A stretch of 63,608 nucleotides of DNA, counting the filler, from Sluysia triapertura (Eukaryota): the NCBI GenBank assembly GCA_046118255.1. It is 4 parts of 4 records of this genome, joined end to end, with 100 filler letters (N's around TTAATTAATTAA, not from the genome) between each part and the next. Parts side by side here need not be neighbours in the genome. Positions count along the whole stretch, not along the records: positions 1 to 21,112 come from JBJNIA010001120.1; 3 more parts are not named here. One strand, written 5' to 3'. The notes under the pieces are model-generated. The model had not been told where the DNA came from. It did not search any database and saw only the letters and a program-made list of their open reading frames with translations. Shown piece by piece: positions 1,711 through 49,849 of the stretch. A program made the position numbers and the translations under genes. Numbering within the stretch: the stretch's first letter is position 1; every line of letters starts with the position of its first letter.

Positions 1711-2565
1711 TTAGTCATAATTTGGTCCATAACAACAATGATCTTTAATGCATTTTAAAATATAAAGCAATAAAAATAATCCTACAATACCAAAAGATAT
1801 GAAAATGATATTGGGTGTTGATGTGAAAATTTCGACTAATCGTCTGTCATAACAGTATGTCCATAATTTATCTGAATCAAAATCTGATGTAGTAGGACAC
1901 CATTTATAATTTATTATATTATCATTAAACGGATTCAAATATGAATCTAAACAAGATGTATATTTTTTATGATTAAAATAAAAAGGAAAATGGCATAATT
2001 TTCCTGGATCATTACCACCAAAAGTAGCTTCTGTTTCTGGACAAAATCTTATGTCGTTAGTTTCTGTGCGACAAATCAGATTACCTTCAAAATTATGGCA
2101 CATTCTGTCAATTTTGGCTGTTTTCTTTGGATCACCATTTCGATGAGAAAAAACGCATGGTAATTCATCGGAAAAGTGTCTACATCGAGTCCAAAGATTA
2201 TCTGAATCATAGTTTCTCGTGGTACTACACCACCAATATATAGAGTTTTTATCTCCACTACGTCTTAAACATGTATATTGAGGTTTGGAATTATAAATAA
2301 ATGGGAAATAACAAAGATTTCCAGGATCATTTCCACCATATGTTTTAGAAGTTTCTGGACAATATTTCCATGTTCGATAACTGTCGTAATTGTCATCCAG
2401 TGGACACCACCATTGGTTATTTGAATTAAGTACGCACTCATATATAGCTCTGTGTTTATACAATGATGGAAAAACACATTTTGTTGTTTCAGTTTTGATC
2501 ACATAGCAAAACCATACTAATCCGTGTATCAAACCGTAATAAAATAATACTAAGTAATTTGTCAT
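1711..2565 (-). CDS. Intronless type I membrane protein with four fibronectin type II (FN2) domains (third degenerate), 284 aa
   Basis: Intact ORF. Hydrophobic N-terminus; repeats of C-x-FP(F)-x-Y...C...WC-x-TT-x-(N/D)(Y/F)D-x-D-xx-W-xx-C; TxGGN linkers typical of FN2; C-terminal TM segment IIFISFGIVGLFLLLYIL; short Cys-rich tail. Confidence 0.9.
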   Translation of the reverse strand: MTNYLVLFYYGLIHGLVWFCYVIKTETTKCVFPSLYKHRAIYECVLNSNNQWWCPLDDNYDSYRTWKYCPETSKTYGGNDPGNLCYFPFIYNSKPQYTCLRRSGDKNSIYWWCSTTRNYDSDNLWTRCRHFSDELPCVFSHRNGDPKKTAKIDRMCHNFEGNLICRTETNDIRFCPETEATFGGNDPGKLCHFPFYFNHKKYTSCLDSYLNPFNDNIINYKWCPTTSDFDSDKLWTYCYDRRLVEIFTSTPNIIFISFGIVGLFLLLYILKCIKDHCCYGPNYD

Positions 2566-4219: not shown

Positions 4220-4768
4220 GATATATTGAGTGGATTTTACCCCTCAATATATCGGAAACGTAAGAAACTTTACAAATTAATATAAAATGTGCCTGTATTT
4301 CATGATGTCAACTTCGAAAGTTGAAATATATAAATTACCAAAAATAGAATTGATGTCCTCCAGAGGATAATTTCCAAATTGTGAACGTTTACTAAGATTT
4401 CACAATTTCTCGAATCACAGCAAACTGAGGAAAATTGATTTTCCAAAATGGCGATTTTCACTATAGTGATGCTAGTTCATATACTAGTCATCAGCCACTG
4501 AAAATCGATGGAATGTTCTAGAACATTCTAGAAGCTTCTATTCTATTTTTAGAAGCTAATTTTCTTTTTTAGAATTTTTTTGGAAAATAAATTTCTTTTT
4601 CGGAAAATAAGTTTCCTTTTTGGAAAGTAATTATTTTTAAAGTAATTTTAAAGATTAATAAATGGTTTTAAAGCGTTTTATATGATTTTAATTAATTTTT
4701 AGATAGTTTTTAATAATTTTAAATGACATTTTTATATTATTTTGTAGGGTTGTGATGACAACCTAACA
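4220..4768. repeat. Unclassified dispersed ~550-bp repeat with a hairpin at each end, copy 1
   Basis: About 320 bp closely matches 49579-49849; both end in TGTAGGGTTGTGATGACAACCTAACA and begin near CCCTCAATATATCGG. Confidence 0.85.
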
Positions 4769-9796: not shown

Positions 9797-10928
9797 TCAT
9801 AATAATACGTTAAATAACATTCGGCCAAACCATTTTGTACGCGTAAAATATAACAAATCAGACATACCATGCATACCCAATACATCAGCATACCAAAACT
9901 AATACAACGTAATTCTAGTAACATAAAATTGATAAACTTAATATTACATATATTCTGTCGTAACTCGTTCTTCGTGCACCCTAAATCAATAAATAAATTT
10001 TAATTATATACAAAATATCAAAAATAAAAGTAAAAATAGTCACTATACAATTTTTCACAAAAACAGCAGAGTTACATAAACTGTAAAATTTATTATAGGA
10101 AATAATGTGATAAAATAAATCATCATAATTTAATTTCAGATAAATATAATAGTATATATAAGTATAACTAGATGAAAAATAACTCATTAAATTATAAATG
10201 TGAATTAAATGCAAACTATTACATTATTAAAGGAAGCTCATTATATAATACACGACTCTCAATAACCCTTTATCTACATCCAAAGTTGATTTGAACTCTA
10301 AAAGGACCTATCATTTAAAATTTCACTAAACACAAATAAACAAAACATCACAAAATATTAAACAAACATGAAACTCATAAAGATCTAAGTACACTAGCAT
10401 AAAAACTTAAAATTAAAAATTGTAATAACAGTACAATTTCTATAAAAACACCCTCAATTCTTCCTAACTTTCTATTATATATTTTCCTTTTACTCTCAGT
10501 CCATGCTTTACAGTTCTGTATACAAGAATAGCGAAAAAACACTTCTCGTTCATAATAATACGTTAAATAACATTCGGCCAAACCATTTTGTACGCGTAAA
10601 CATGCCATTCATACCCATTACATCAGCATACCAAAAATAATACAACGTAATTCTAGTAAGATAAAATTCATAAACTTAATATTACATTTGTTCTGTTGTA
10701 ACTCGTTCTTGGAGAATCCTAAATCAATAAATATATTTTAATTATATACAATAATATCAAAAATAAAAGTAAAATTTGACTATATAATTTTTCACAAAAA
10801 CAGAAGAGTTACATGAACTATTTAATTTATTATAAAAAATAATGTGATAAAATAAATTAATATAATTTAATTTCAGATAAATATAACAGTAAATATAAAT
10901 ATAACTCTCATTAAATTATAAATTTGAA
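9797..10928 (+). repeat. Local direct duplication of ~400 bp (9797-10204 and 10550-10928)
   Basis: Both copies start TCATAATAATACGTTAAATAACATTCGGCCAAACC and align with small indels. Confidence 0.9.
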
Positions 10929-18299: not shown

Positions 18300-18750
18300 G
18301 AAAATTTATTAATAAAGAAACAACTAAACTTATTGTTCATTCATTGATAACTAGTAACATAAATTTTAACAATGGTTTATTGTTCTCAATTTCAGATAGA
18401 AAAATGAAAAAGTTACAATTAATAATTAATCAAGCAGCCAGACTAATTCTACAAGTTGGAAGATCTCATGTAACGCTTTATCTTAAAGAATTACATTGGT
18501 TGACAAAGAAAGGAAGAATATAATTTAAAATCATGACAAATGCTGAATATCTTTTAGAAATAATGCGGAAATTGGAAACCAAGATGAATATTTCATTGAG
18601 ACAATAATAATCTATACATAATTCACAGTGATAACAAGCTAGGTGGTAGGTTGTATACTGTTTATGTCTCAAAAATATACAACCAGTTACCAGAGAATGT
18701 CAAATTGCTGGAAGATTATGAAATATTTAATATATTATTATTATTACGCG
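18300..18750 (+). mobile_element. L2-clade LINE 3' end, copy 1
   Basis: KKLQLIINQAARLI...RSHVTLYLKELHWL...YNQLPENVK; clearly homologous to 60268-60800, with internal deletions. Confidence 0.85.
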
Positions 18751-20619: not shown

Positions 20620-21112
20620 CCCAAAATTAAGCTCTTGAAAATCAAACAATAACAAAACAATAATTTACTGTTAAACAAAAATCAAAGTACAAATTATTAT
20701 TATGAATCTCCACTAAACAATACTAAAAATGACAAAATTATCAATAACGTTTATAATAATATTAAGGATACTACAATCTAACTAAAGAAATCAGGAGTGA
20801 CGCAAAGACACCAACAATATCAATATCTAGAAAGTTAATAATAATGATGCTGCTTAAATATTTTTAGATAAAGATTAAAAAAAATAATAATAATCATGTA
20901 ACAATATTAAAATAATAAAACAATAAAATAATAAAATGTCCCTACCAAAAGCAAGGATCTTCTTACTTCTGCAAATATTCTTGTGTCCTGTTATTGTGTG
21001 ATTAAACTGAAAAAATTTTAAAATTTTATTTTATACTCTCATCATCCAATCAATTCACAATCTCACAACCAAACACTCTCTCACACAAATCATCCTAACC
21101 TCTTTGAGAATC
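20620..21112 (+). repeat. Dispersed repeat, homologous to 27980-28671
   Basis: Shared blocks (AGTGACGCAA, GGATCTTCT); the last ~55 bp are identical to about 28617-28671. Confidence 0.8.
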
Positions 21113-26000: not shown

Positions 26001-27979
26001 TAATCTAAATGTTTCTGTTTAATCTAAATAATTCCAAGTTTGGAAAGATGTCTTGAAGTGTAAAGATACCTTTGAACTTCGAAACCTTGGAATCACTTGA
26101 GACCTTGTTGGAACCTTAATAAACTTTTGAGATCTTTGAGCAACCTTGTGAAAAGTTTGGAACTTTTGAAATATTCAAGCATTAAAATTATGGTTAATGA
26201 TGCTAAAGACAAATTTAATACATTAATAATTAAACTAAAAAAGTAGAAAAAGGAATCAGAGTAGTGAAGGTGAAAACATCTAGAGCCTCCTGAGTACCGC
26301 ATAAAGTATCTAACAACTTTATAACCATGATCAAACCTTTAAACTTAAAATAAAATAAGTTAAAATAATTAATTAATTAATTAAATCTTAATTAACTTAA
26401 TTAAGGAAAATTACGTTGGTGTGAATAACTTTTGAATGAGGAATGCTATGTTAAAACTTTAATTGTGAATGTATGTTTTTTAAAGGGACATTTCGATGAA
26501 GATAAGGTTTGACCGAGTTCATGCGAGGAAAACCTCTATATTGAGCAAAGTTGAATTTTAATTAATTTTTAATTTAAAATGATGGAATTTTCATATTTAG
26601 AATTATGATGAGTTGGGTATGGAGTGATTGCTATGAAATAGGAGAATCCAAATATTTTCCATTAAATATTTTCCATTAAGAAATTGAGTGTGAGGAGTTG
26701 AAAATTAATTAAAGTGTAAAAACTGAAGTTAAATTCATTATTTATTTTAATGTAAAAAGTGATTCATGAAAAAATAATAGTGTAGAGTAGAAAAAAAGAG
26801 AGTTGATTGTTAATAGAATTAACAGGTCTTACCATGTAAGTGTCAGAGTCGTTTTAGTCGGTTTAATATTTAAGAGGTTTTGATGATTTATGTAAATATA
26901 ATTCCTGATTGTAAGTATAAAGTGATATAAAATGAGTAGATAGAATCTTTATCTACGCAACAACGTTCATGATGATTTAATGAACATGAAAAAAATTCAT
27001 GATGATATAATGAAAACAGAATTTTGTTTATTTTATAATTTCAATTTAGCCTAATATTTTTATTTATCTTATACTTTTAAATAACGACATACTTTATATT
27101 TTTAATTTTTGAATAAGGTAAGACATGAATAAATCGATTTTTATTTGATTTTATAACTTTATGTCTTTAAAATTTTGAGAATCTTTTTAAGTGTTTAAAT
27201 TTTGCTTTCGATAAACTGATTTTAATTGAGTTATGGAGACATCTTGTTCAAATTATTTTAAATTGACTTAAGTTATATATTTAAGTTTGAATTTTAAATT
27301 TATTTTAACTTTTAGCTAGTGATTTTAATCACATTGTGGACGACTCTCTGCTCAAATTGTATTTTCATAGTTTTCATAATTTTTGTTAAAAAAATGATTA
27401 GTTGGTGAATCAGAATCAGAACTAATTCAACCGATTCGGTTTCATCTAAGAATAATTTTTGAGATGCATGTCTGTTTTGCAACTAATTTATGTGGTAATT
27501 GTTGTAACAAAAAGATAAATTAGCACACCAAGCAACTACCATCAGTCGGCAGTTAACAAGACAGCCTGAATTGATTTTAATTACATTGTCGACTGATGAC
27601 AGGCTGTATGATGAAAAATGATAATTAAGTGTTGACAGTTGAATGATAATGATAATGTAAATGAAGATTAATAATGATAATAAATAATATTAATAATAAT
27701 AAAATAGTAATAATGATGTAAAACATAAACTAAAATAATAATAATAACAATAATAATAATAATAATGAAAATAAAATTAAATTAAATACATAAACTTCTT
27801 ATAATTCTTCTTTACATTACACAATCTTTTGATTATGTGCGTCTTTCAAATTTATTATTTATTATAACTCAATCTTATCTCGTTCAGCTTAAAATAGTCA
27901 TAATAATTTCAGTAGTTAATATTTCTAATATAATTTTGCCGTAATCTTCTTTCTTAATATTAATAACGACTACCCCCAA

Positions 27980-28671
27980 TTCAAGTTCTTGACAATCAAA
28001 ATCAAAACTAAGTCAATAATGTATTATTAAACAAAAATTCGTAGTATAATTTATTGTCAATGAAAATCTTAACGAAATCACTAAAATGACAAAAATAACA
28101 ATAATGTTGATAATAAAATTAAAGACATTACAATCTAATTAAAACAAAACAACCAGAAGTGACGCAACAACGATAAAAAATGAATATCCAGAAAGTTTAG
28201 AATAGTAATGATAATTAAAAATATTTTAAAAATAAATTGGGCAGAGCGTCTCCCTCTAAAATTATCTTTTAATTAGCTAAAAATCAAATAGTTAATTCAA
28301 AATAGTTAATTCAAAAATAAATGAAAATTAAATATAACTTTGAACAAAAATTATGCAGGGAGTTTCCTATCAACTTACCTTAAAAACAGCTTAAAAATTA
28401 ACTGAAAATAATATAATATCAAAATTATCCAAATTAAAATAGAATTAGTTATTTATGTTATTTTAATGAAATAACAAATAAATAAACAAAATTTACCCTC
28501 TGCATGGATCTTCTCTCCTTATTGTTGACAACGTTATTGTTGTATTATTGTATTGTTATTGTGTTGTAAAAATTTTGAAATCTTTATTTTATACTTTCTC
28601 ATCATCCAATCATTTGCAATCTCACAACCAAACACTCTCTCACACAAATCATCCTAACCTCTTTGAGAATC
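27980..28671 (+). repeat. Dispersed repeat, homologous to 20620-21112, with an internal insertion
   Basis: Visual alignment of shared blocks. Confidence 0.8.
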
Positions 28672-31184: not shown

Positions 31185-31860
31185 TAATATATTCTGCGAA
31201 ATAAGTACACAAAAGCGATTAAAGTAAAGCATCGATTATAAAATTTTAGAAATAATTTAATGTTCTCTGGTAGCTGATAGTTTTGAAACAAATGGTACAT
31301 AATATGCCACCTATCTTATTATTATATCTTAATGCCATTCTCATTTGGTTTCTGATTTTTTTATTTTTATTGTTTTCGGCACTTCCATAATATAAATTAT
31401 AGCCATGATTTTGAAGTTTTATTCTTGCTTTTATTGATAATGTAATTCTTTAATATAAGGTGTTATGTGAGATCTTTCCTACTTAAAAAATAGTCTTGAT
31501 TAATAATTGCAATTGGAATTTTTATACGTTTCAATAAAATTGAGTACAGTTTAGTCTATTCAATATACCATTATTAACACTAAAGGCACCATGACCTGTC
31601 AAATGATCGTTTTTATTTTTTTCATAAAAATACTACGAAATTGTATTTTTTTCCATTTTATTGACTTAATTTTATACATAGTATGAATAGGTATACATCA
31701 AACCTTGGTGTAATTAATGATGGTGCAATTAGTTTTGCTGTAACTTTATTAATGAATATTTTAATATCTGACATTTTTATTATTATTTTCATCATTCTTT
31801 ATTTTTGAACCAAATAACATGTGCTGTATTTTTCTTTCTAAAAGTAGAACTTAATCGCAA
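31121..31860 (-). mobile_element. L2-clade LINE 3' end, older copy with (ATT)n tail, downstream of ANKRD27 exon 2
   Basis: Minus strand gives TAKLIAPSLITPRFD and RSHITPYIKELH..IKARI; long (ATT)n tail at 31121-31181. Confidence 0.7.
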
Positions 31861-40170: not shown

Positions 40171-43100
40171 ATTAATTTCGACAAGGATATTTAATGGAAT
40201 AATGTTTTAATCTTCTCAATTTCAGAATTGAAAATTGGAAATCCTTACAAAATTATATTTAATACCCAAATTTATTTTTATTACAGTATTGTCTGAATGA
40301 TATAAGTATCTTAATTGATTATTTTTTGTATAATTGATATTATTTTTAGAATATTTTATTAGAAATATTTCTATTATTTAAAATCTGATGCCATGTGTTT
40401 AGAAACAATACACATACATATGTATGACTATTAATTTAATATATGACGATTTTCATGGAAATATAATCTAACAACGATATTCGTATATTTATTGTCTGTT
40501 GCTATGATATTAAAATTCAAAAATAACAAAACTCATTATTCATCGATATTAGAATAACACTAGCATAAATATTAAGTGATAATTTAATATAAAATATAAT
40601 TTTATTGTTAGTTGATTGTAATATATTAAATTAATAAGATTTTTAGTTGGGTTTTTAAACGTTAATTAATCACGATTACTCATAATATCTCAAACTAATG
40701 TTAGGCTGGCATGACAATCCTTTAAAGTCATAAATTTACAAAAGAGTTTTGTGAAACACAATTCACAATTAGTAATTTCAACTTATTCAGAAAAATTATT
40801 AATATTGAAGTCATTGTCATTATTTACTAACTTATCTAAATTGAAGGCAGCGGAAATTTTTATTTGTTCTCAAAAAAATATCAAAATTCGTAAGATGTTT
40901 TACTTATAAGAGTAAAATATTAAACATATTAATTAGAATTTTTTGATACACCAATTTAATATGGGAAAATTTTATATTAGATTTTGTTTCTTCAAGTTAT
41001 TATTGTAACATTATCGATTTAGATGTTGATGTAGTTCAATCATACATTTTGGTGTTCTTTTGTATTTTTATTATAATATATCTGTTAATAAAAGATTATA
41101 AAATCAATTTTATGTTTATTTCTTTGTGAATCAATTGTAATAAATTAATTGTATAAAATAATTTTACAAAATAAGTTTACCTACTCTTTTCAATAGCGCT
41201 CTTTTACTTATTGTTGGGATACAGGCATAAAGTGCCATAGAATAATGATAGTTATATTGATAAGTCAGTGGGAAGATCATGGATTCGCCTACGCCACTTA
41301 TCGGTGACTCTCGACGACCTGGCATACAGGCCGTGGTACTTCCTCAAGACTTGCATGGACTTGGCGACAAACCACAAACTGCAGGTGTCTCTGGAGCCTT
41401 GGGTTCATGGGATCCCGAGAATGACAAGCTAATAATAAAAATACTAAATTCTTCATTAAATCTAAATTAAATTAACCATATAACGCAAGTCGTGCAAATA
41501 AATCAAAGGTGGATAAAAGCTGTGCAATTAATTCTATCGTCCATTTTAATATGTCATATATGGTGGTTCAACCTTTTCTTTCACAAAAATTAACAAAACA
41601 TCACACATCACAAACATACAATCACAAAACCTTAAAAACATACAAACATTCTAACATACAAAGCTCTTAAAAATACATTTTTGTTAATATAGGAAAATTG
41701 TACTGAAATTTCTACAAGTACAACTGATATCCTTCCTAACTTATTATTGTAAACGTTTTCGACTTTTTTCAACGCAAAAGTAACATTCACAGCTTTGTAT
41801 CGAGTCTTTCGAAATAAAATTTAAATACTGGTAGGTTAAAATTATAAAAAACAATATTCAATTACTAAATTATATTTATTAAAACTTCTTTTACAAAATC
41901 CAGGACAAGACAAATAATGTGAAAGATATTTATTAAACATACACTCTTGTAGAATTATAGTTAAACATTTAAATAGTTAAATATTATGAAATATTAAATA
42001 TCTACACTGAACACTTTGTGGGCCACACTTTGCAGGTGCCAAAATAGTGATAAAAATCAACTAAAAATGAATCAACATAAATTTTAAAATATCGTACTTG
42101 AAGTGACAAGTAACAAAGTTCTTCATTTATGGAGCTGGAATGTGATTTGCCAAATGCGCTTGCGTTAATCGTTGTATTGTATCTTATCGAGATAATAGTC
42201 GTTTATATTTTACAGATATATAAAAATCGTCAGAATGTATTGGATAATATTAATACAGTTTGTTAATAAATAAATTGTAAAATAAATTAATGATTGTTTA
42301 AAAGCTGTTTATACAATCGTATAATCACTTCCAACAAGTATACTCTTATTCCAACAACTATACTTTCATTAATACTGACATATTTTGTTAAACAATGCAT
42401 TGTTATGTCAGCAACGTGATTTACAAGGTCGTAAATAGAATGTATTACCAAATATAACATAGACATTTTTAATATCAACGATTTCCATTAGTGAATAAGA
42501 TGGAATTTCAATCCATATCATTTTTTGTAGATGAAGTTGAATACTTCTTTAATAATACCAAATCTTGGAAATCCGTAGCCTCACATTTTAATCTAAATTT
42601 CGCATTTACTTTCATAAAATGAAGCTTAGATTCTCTGTATACTTCGACGGGATATTGAGATTCAACTCCAATACATAAATGATTAATTATAGAATTTAAT
42701 GTATCTAATCTTGAAGTGAATGTTGAATGTTTTCATATTCTTTTAATACTCATTCAATATAATTATCAAAGTATGAATGATAGTATTTTATATGTTCGTT
42801 TGAAATCGTAGATAATAACATAGATGGTATTCTTGGTCTAGCTGTATCATAGCGATCAATAAATTCACGACCTTTTTATAAGATATTAATTTTGAATTTG
42901 TTTTAAAGTCTTTAAGAACTTCATAGAACTTGTCCTCATAAAGTTTCAGCTTGAACATGTTGTTAAAATTGACTAGAAAATTGTGAATTTTAATGTTATG
43001 AGTACTCTATCTAAATTGTAATTGAGATTAATATTGTCTGTGAGATTGTTGCCAAATTGCTTTTGTTTTGATATGTACAAAAATTTTTATTGGCCAACTG

Positions 43101-49294: not shown

Positions 49295-49849
49295 GACCCT
49301 CAATATATCGGGGAAACTTTAAACATTTACTAAACGAAATATTAATTTAAGTATAATTTAAGATATTAGCTTCATTAGATGAAGTTAATATCAATCTTAA
49401 AATAAACAAATTATTTGGAACATGGATTTTAAATCCGATATACTCTGTTGGTTCAAAATCCCAAAATTCCAAATCGTCTATCAAACAAAATTTAAAAGAT
49501 GACCGTGAGTTGAAATTTAACTGCTTTATCTATCAATTGGATTTGTCAATATAAATTTCGAAATGGTGTTATTTTTAAAAATGGCGATTTTCATTGTATG
49601 GATGCTAGTTTATATCCTAGTCATCATCCGATGAAAATCGATGGAATGTTCTAAAACATTCTCGAAACTTCTATTATATTTTTAGAAGCTAATTTTCTTT
49701 TTTGGAAAATAATTGTTTTTTAAGTAATTTCAAAGATTAATAAATGGTTTAAAACATTTTCTACGATTTTAATTAATTTTTTGATAATTTTAAATAGTTT
49801 TAAATAATTTTAAGGTATCATTTTGTAGGGTTGTGATGACAACCTAACA
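49295..49849. repeat. Unclassified hairpin-ended repeat, copy 2
   Basis: Homologous to 4220-4768 at both termini. Confidence 0.85.

Follow-up and report, generated by a model that had tools for sequence, protein, structure and literature searches.

A predicted FN2-module surface protein with a short tail in Sluysia triapertura, a likely member of a conserved flatworm family

The DNA analysed here (the window) comprised 63,608 nucleotides of the Sluysia triapertura assembly GCA_046118255.1, made of four joined parts, with a GC content of approximately 24%. A stop-free frame of 284 codons plus the stop was located on the minus strand at 1711-2565, with its methionine directly after an in-frame stop. 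No other frame in the window came near this length, the runner-up reaching 145 residues, and 1000 shuffles of the frame's own DNA gave a longest frame of 152 codons. The frame was present in one copy in the window (tblastn). The encoded protein contained 20 cysteines, 16 of them in four groups of four, and ended in the C-terminal tail KCIKDHCCYGPNYD. Its exact sequence had no match in the protein collection searched, and a word-seeded search with this one protein passed none of 129 candidates. Contigs of one sequencing run gave five short partial matches to the frame, not the gene itself, and an Rfam search of the window returned no match. The frame looks like a real gene, without interruption, whose product is predicted to lie at the cell surface, and the single intact frame with a signal-like N-terminus, TM helix and tail described in the initial annotation was seen at this position. 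A 9-mer, CGCTCAAAA, was found three times upstream of the gene (2718, 3837 and 4082) and nowhere else in the window; the nearest copy lay approximately 150 nt before the start codon.

Two other genes were identified. Pieces of an Ndr (NDRG) family gene lay at 62205-62588 on the minus strand, separated by GT-AG introns, one of 37 nt (62442-62478) and one of 47 nt (62334-62380); their Pfam matches (E 0.015 and 0.038) were below the curated cut-off. The last exon of a CDC50/LEM3 gene, at 55853-56021 on the minus strand, stood behind an AG acceptor (Pfam E 3.5e-11), and upstream CDC50 exons were not recognised among the fragments scanned. The remark that other genes of the window are spliced holds for these two.

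Module order was read directly from the protein, all of whose features are encoded on the minus strand. A hydrophobic stretch at residues 5-23 (2497-2553), assigned by hydropathy and covered by a model helix at residues 2-24, was followed by module 1, a short-loop FN2 module from C30 to C69 (2359-2478). Module 2 (C85-C128; 2182-2313) was a canonical FN2 module by profile and fold match, with R127 at the last pocket position. Module 3 (C137-C175; 2041-2157) appears to be an eroded, FN2-derived module and was recognised by a family-diagnostic profile; its four cysteines were retained and its pocket aromatics were absent. Module 4 (C191-C238; 1852-1995) was canonical with a longer loop, and residues 191-238 gave the best Pfam stretch. 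A TM helix was predicted at residues 252-270 (1756-1812) from hydropathy, a model helix and the same position in relatives. The remaining 14-residue tail (1711-1755) carried C272, C277 and C278, ended in GPNYD and lacked the P(S/T)AP and PPSY motifs. Kyte-Doolittle hydropathy was 1.9 at residues 5-23 and 2.5 at residues 252-270. From hydropathy and the matching position in relatives, residues 5-23 are predicted to form a signal peptide or signal anchor. No basic residue preceded this stretch, and it could remain uncleaved.

Pfam fn2 matched the protein in three stretches (E 2e-30) and was the only family to pass; ricin-B, C-type lectin and Peptidase M10 domains were not matched. The HMMER check proposed in the initial annotation thus returned fn2, in three stretches rather than four. 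Of the four FN2 domains claimed there, modules 1, 2 and 4 stood; module 3 is probably an eroded module, and it gave no FN2 match in the PDB sequence search. With profiles built from family members, the canonical FN2 profile was matched at 99.7% probability by module 2, 99.1% by module 4 and 98.3% by module 1. The module 3 profile matched canonical FN2 at 13.8% and module 1 at 86.8% (hhalign), and modules 2 and 4 were alike at 99.6%. Because modules 2 and 4 are alike and module 3 resembles module 1, the ectodomain is best read as (A-B)x2, a duplicated pair of short module plus full FN2, with module 3 as a probable eroded copy of module 1.

An AlphaFold model built with 23 family rows gave a mean pLDDT of 84 and a pTM of 0.64; from the single sequence the pLDDT was 42. 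Fold-search matches were taken up by modules 1 and 2 and the TM helix. Modules 1 and 2 of the model superposed on solved FN2 domains with an rmsd of 1.3-2.2: module 1 on factor XII FN2 (Z 6.4, rmsd 1.7 over 42) and module 2 on mannose receptor FN2 (Z 8.5, rmsd 1.8 over 57). The earlier description of a surface protein built of FN2-type modules with a TM anchor is supported.

Relatives were collected by phmmer against 1.84 billion representatives, which gave 648 matches at E 0.001, the top 150 of them being listed; a profile search gave 110 further proteins among 3341 candidates. Most of the matches listed were vertebrate FN2-repeat proteins and MMP-9. In BLASTP with the ectodomain, 19 family rows scored 124-182 bits in one colinear alignment, and the best outsider scored 111. 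The same module order with a TM helix was found in at least 11 trematode species, plus Macrostomum lignano (partial). The trematode members came from Calicophoron daubneyi, Opisthorchis viverrini, O. felineus, Clonorchis sinensis, Schistosoma margrebowiei, S. japonicum (partial), Fasciola gigantica, F. hepatica, Heterobilharzia americana, Trichobilharzia szidati and Dicrocoelium dendriticum. Further four-module relatives were P0010, P0024, P0166, P0168 and P0159. No annelid, mollusc, cestode or planarian family member was named among the matches listed, and a metagenome contig scan gave four weak single-module loci (E ~3e-5). The initial annotation had not recognised this architecture elsewhere and had called the protein lineage-specific; because relatives of the same architecture exist in flukes and Macrostomum, that claim is refuted on its own terms.

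Shorter forms, consisting of short module, FN2 and TM, were found as P0048, P0121 and P0143 (Logan). P0048 carries PTAP and PPSY, which fits an origin of the four-module form by duplication of the short module plus FN2 pair.

A module 3 profile trained on 13 relatives, with the window protein excluded, gave the window protein a score of 23.5 bits (E 6e-7); among the 264 proteins searched, the highest score outside the family was 5.1 bits. A tree of 29 ectodomains was made with one row per close cluster, other proteins being left out. The window protein fell inside a 15-row family clade with support of 100/100, on a long end branch (1.03); it stood apart from the trematode subclade, and no sister to it was supported. 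Vertebrate FN2-repeat proteins fell outside the family clade. A constraint grouping the window protein with five named squamate FN2-repeat proteins and one further row, a group picked after the tree was seen, was rejected (p-AU 0.0004). The FN2 phylogeny thus placed the protein with the flatworm family and away from vertebrate FN2 proteins, and the lateral gain from a vertebrate once suggested is excluded for the rows tested. From module profiles, alignment and tree, the window protein is very likely a member of a flatworm FN2-TM family, and the comparison indicates that this family is old and conserved.

Database entries for this family include Opisthorchis viverrini KER31975.1, Macrostomum lignano A0A1I8IZR2, Clonorchis sinensis GAA33061.1, annotated as 'epididymal sperm-binding protein 1', as well as Fasciola gigantica TPP64277.1, labelled 'matrix metallopeptidase-9'. 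These relatives matched no Pfam family other than fn2, and their labels are best-hit transfers. The window protein shares with its flatworm relatives the four-module order, the diagnostic module 3, the TM helix, GxxPG..C linkers and WT(R/K)C ends, at 34-47% identity in the alignment. It differs in being, among the matches listed, the shortest four-module member, with a 14-residue tail, whereas in trematodes the proteins are extended by inserts in the loops, by a stalk of ~170-240 residues and by long tails.

Similarities to other FN2 proteins were partial. BSP proteins (including PDC-109) and ELSPBP1 are secreted and have neither a TM helix nor a tail. They share an FN2-only extracellular part with the window protein, and PDC-109 was the best solved sequence match of module 1; the window protein differs by its TM helix at residues 252-270, and descent from vertebrate FN2-repeat proteins was not found, those proteins lying outside the family clade. 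In the available text of PMC4635314, mannose-receptor family proteins are composed of ricin-B, one FN2 domain and 8-10 C-type lectin domains. Members of that family (MR, Endo180/uPARAP, PLA2R and DEC-205) resemble the window protein in its predicted type I layout, with extracellular FN2 and a short cytoplasmic tail, and module 2 superposed on the FN2 domain of the mannose receptor. The window protein differs in lacking ricin-B and C-type lectin domains and the R-x-D motif as described in that text, and in having three FN2 domains against one. Compared with MMP-2 and MMP-9, it lacks a Peptidase M10 catalytic domain around its three FN2 domains.

In the literature searched, which left most subscription papers outside its scope, no paper on the flatworm FN2-TM family was found. 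FN2 domains in flatworms are described in the accessible parts of two papers, in turbellarian VAL proteins (PMC3435950) and in S. mediterranea proteins mentioned in PMC6211748; the latter also reports FN2 domains in a planarian nidovirus. The available text of PMC4557993, a BSP phylogeny, contained no occurrence of 'invertebrate' or 'transmembrane', and the accessible part of bioRxiv 10.1101/2024.02.05.578899 concerns type III domains, not type II. A secreted 'fibronectin type II domain' protein of Fasciola gigantica (fraction F22; PMC9951737 section 3.4) was considered and set aside, being listed as type III in Table S3. An orthologue was not found under the names tried in the Fasciola single-cell marker tables (PMC13400776), and a schistosome orthologue was not found in the 12 of 25 supplementary files of PMC12909830 that were searched.

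The ligand pocket was compared with solved and mutated FN2 domains, using positions given in the available text of the sources. In PDC-109 the phosphocholine site comprises W47/W58 and W93/W106 with Tyr 30, 54 and 60 and Tyr 75, 100 and 108, and domain b also binds collagen (PMC2823774, accessible text). In the alignment, Y36, W53, Y60, W66 and Y68 of module 1 fell on PDC-109 Y75, W93, Y100, W106 and Y108 as numbered there. By the same positions, module 1 retained five of the five phosphocholine-site aromatics and module 2 four of them, R127 taking the last place; module 4 kept both Trp and one Tyr, with two Tyr replaced by Phe, and the pocket of module 3 was lost. At the first module 1 pocket position the family varied, many rows having H, R, G or D there. 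The last pocket position was Arg or Lys in 24 of 24 family modules 2 and 4, and aromatic in 474 of 610 outsiders.

These pocket aromatics are compatible with more than one ligand. The window protein could serve matrix adhesion by binding collagen or gelatin, or could take up collagen, as an analogue of Endo180/uPARAP that has no lectin domains. According to the part of PMC4635314 available, Y193A, R206A/D208A and Y219A abolish gelatin binding by Endo180, the same aromatic positions serve gelatin binding there, and DEC-205, in which Y193, R206 and D208 are missing, is not considered to internalise collagen. Modules 2 and 4 matched MMP-9, MMP-2 and fibronectin best and carried aromatics at the positions of Endo180 Y193, Y219 and W225 given in that text, Tyr or Phe being retained at the gelatin Tyr positions in modules 1, 2 and 4; a tandem FN2 array with an endocytic tail also follows mannose-receptor family logic as that source presents it. 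Against this, the Endo180-type R-x-D (R206/D208), placed by cysteine spacing from the same text, was absent from all four window modules, as in DEC-205, and the equivalent of F227 was Arg in module 2 and Arg or Lys in all family modules 2 and 4. An R-x-D anywhere in the loop was present in 4 of 24 family modules 2 and 4 (none in register) versus 281 of 610 non-family modules. We regard the collagen-receptor reading as unlikely.

The absence of R-x-D and the Arg or Lys at the last pocket position tip the ligand guess away from gelatin. A membrane choline head group, read mainly by module 1, is tentatively favoured over gelatin, at somewhat under even odds; it remains a guess because both ligands use these aromatics and many family rows lack the first Tyr of module 1. 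Since that Tyr varies, module 4 carries Phe and all 24 family modules 2 and 4 carry Arg or Lys, the ligand of the family may be something else, for example anionic. An adhesin or receptor role for the window protein, as proposed in the initial annotation, is plausible.

Of the 13 complete four-module relatives listed, 12 had a tail with P(S/T)AP and, after it, PPSY; the exception was P0022, whose cluster mate P0158 carries both motifs. The pair was also present in one of three two-module forms. In the 14-residue tail of the window protein the aligner set the terminal GPNYD on PPSYD of relatives. PSAP and PPSY/PPTY were absent from every minus-strand frame of the window. The overlapping PSAP/PPSY motif of the relatives resembles that of LITAF/SIMPLE, an unrelated protein, and is missing from the window protein itself. 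In LITAF, PPXY is a ligand for the WW domains of NEDD4, the P(S/T)AP that overlaps it is a predicted TSG101 binding site, and PPSY mutants are found more at the plasma membrane (accessible text of PMC5142333). The motifs absent from the window tail are thus likely the sorting motifs of the family. Since it lacks a sorting signal that most relatives carry, the window protein likely stays longer at the surface than they do, by analogy with LITAF.

The best overall explanation, to which we give a probability of roughly 55%, is that the gene encodes a ligand-binding surface receptor of the flatworm family with reduced ESCRT sorting. That the protein is a surface ligand-binding receptor is, judged on its own from sequence, distinctly probable; the full mechanism, with pocket ligand, trafficking and tether, is offered tentatively. 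The protein is predicted to be a single-pass surface receptor, for which we infer a type I topology. Its FN2 aromatic pockets would grip a ligand outside the cell, the best guess being a choline head group on a membrane. By analogy with LITAF, the tails of relatives would recruit Nedd4-type ligases and Tsg101, leading to ubiquitination, uptake and ESCRT endosomal sorting. Without these tail motifs the window protein would remain longer at the plasma membrane, held by its TM helix and possibly by palmitoylation of C272, C277 and C278, which is suggested from general knowledge. Because of this longer residence it would be more a tether than a scavenger.

Our verdict is of a real gene from a conserved but uncharacterised family, with the trimmed tail as its one modest change specific to the lineage. 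Taken alone, the gene is ordinary: it belongs to a conserved family and is not a lineage invention. It points to a surface-receptor family common to free-living flatworms and medically important flukes, which databases mislabel as MMP-9 or ELSPBP1. If the FN2 pockets are coupled to ubiquitin/ESCRT sorting, the family would be a candidate for taking up membrane or matrix in flatworms, and the window copy, without the family tail, shows which part is dispensable.

A bolder extension, which we consider rather doubtful, would make the whole family an undescribed receptor, flatworm-wide and without lectin domains, whose FN2 pockets recognise choline or anionic head groups on membranes and which passes cargo to Nedd4/ESCRT, the window copy being a tail-less tether. 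The late-domain-like PSAP plus PPSY tail would on this extension be conserved in schistosomes and liver flukes, and the window copy would have switched from uptake receptor to fixed tether, for example in gamete or host-cell contact.

A different account of the short tail is that the gene model is incomplete, the frame being one large exon and a downstream exon restoring the PSAP/PPSY tail of a plain orthologue. The presence of the motif in all but one of the complete four-module relatives listed, the mere 1.7 kb of window downstream of the frame, and the splicing of the other genes identified in the window all speak for this account. A consensus-like splice donor (by a pattern of our own) was not found in the last 100 nt of the frame, however, and PSAP, PPxY and even PP were absent from the three minus frames of 1-1800. 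The alignment of the terminal GPNYD on PPSYD is also what an eroded motif would give. An incomplete model is accordingly judged improbable, and the reduced-sorting receptor of the flatworm family remains the preferred reading.

The initial annotation had linked the single-frame state of the gene to retroposition, lateral acquisition or recent expansion; as regards expansion, the window showed one copy. Contigs of 9,122 (P0024), 16,085 (P0166) and 23,322 bases (P0159) each yielded a whole relative as one called protein, and these whole-protein calls on contigs of 9-23 kb suggest that the intronless state is common to the family. If the contig calls are unspliced genomic ORFs, lack of introns would characterise the family and would not point to recent retroposition. 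No perfect hairpin was found within 1.2 kb upstream of the frame (arm of at least 7 with at least 2 GC pairs, criteria that were our own and not derived from any cassette sequence), and the only pairs from a repeat search of the upstream sequence were AT-rich and looked like chance. The frame as cargo of a mobile cassette was rejected because no hairpin head was present upstream and the ORF was intact. With relatives apparently intronless too and no hairpin head upstream, retroposition is weakened. A lineage-specific adhesin gained by retroposition, mobile-cassette capture or transfer from a vertebrate host would agree with a single-frame gene among spliced ones but is very improbable, and largely refuted as a retro- or laterally acquired adhesin, given the same architecture in flukes and Macrostomum, the fully supported family clade, the rejected squamate grouping, relatives running whole from signal peptide to tail on single contigs, the missing hairpin, and an ORF that is intact and not mosaic.

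Other features of the window were recorded. A GC-rich island at 41167-41471 contained frames of up to ~50% GC against the 24% background and had no Pfam or Rfam match. On the minus strand at 54030-54614, an Endonuclease/exonuclease/phosphatase fragment (Pfam E 7e-4) adjoined a Cys/His-rich, knuckle-like frame; this stretch looks like a broken LINE relic. Two-copy repeats with 73-86% identity were present at 9797-10204 and 10550-10928, at 4438-4768 and 49571-49849, and at 20620-21112 and 27974-28671. A dispersed repeat was found at 18352-18730 and 60266-60683 (82% identical), and also at 31318-31548; its frames resemble the end of a LINE reverse-transcriptase ORF.
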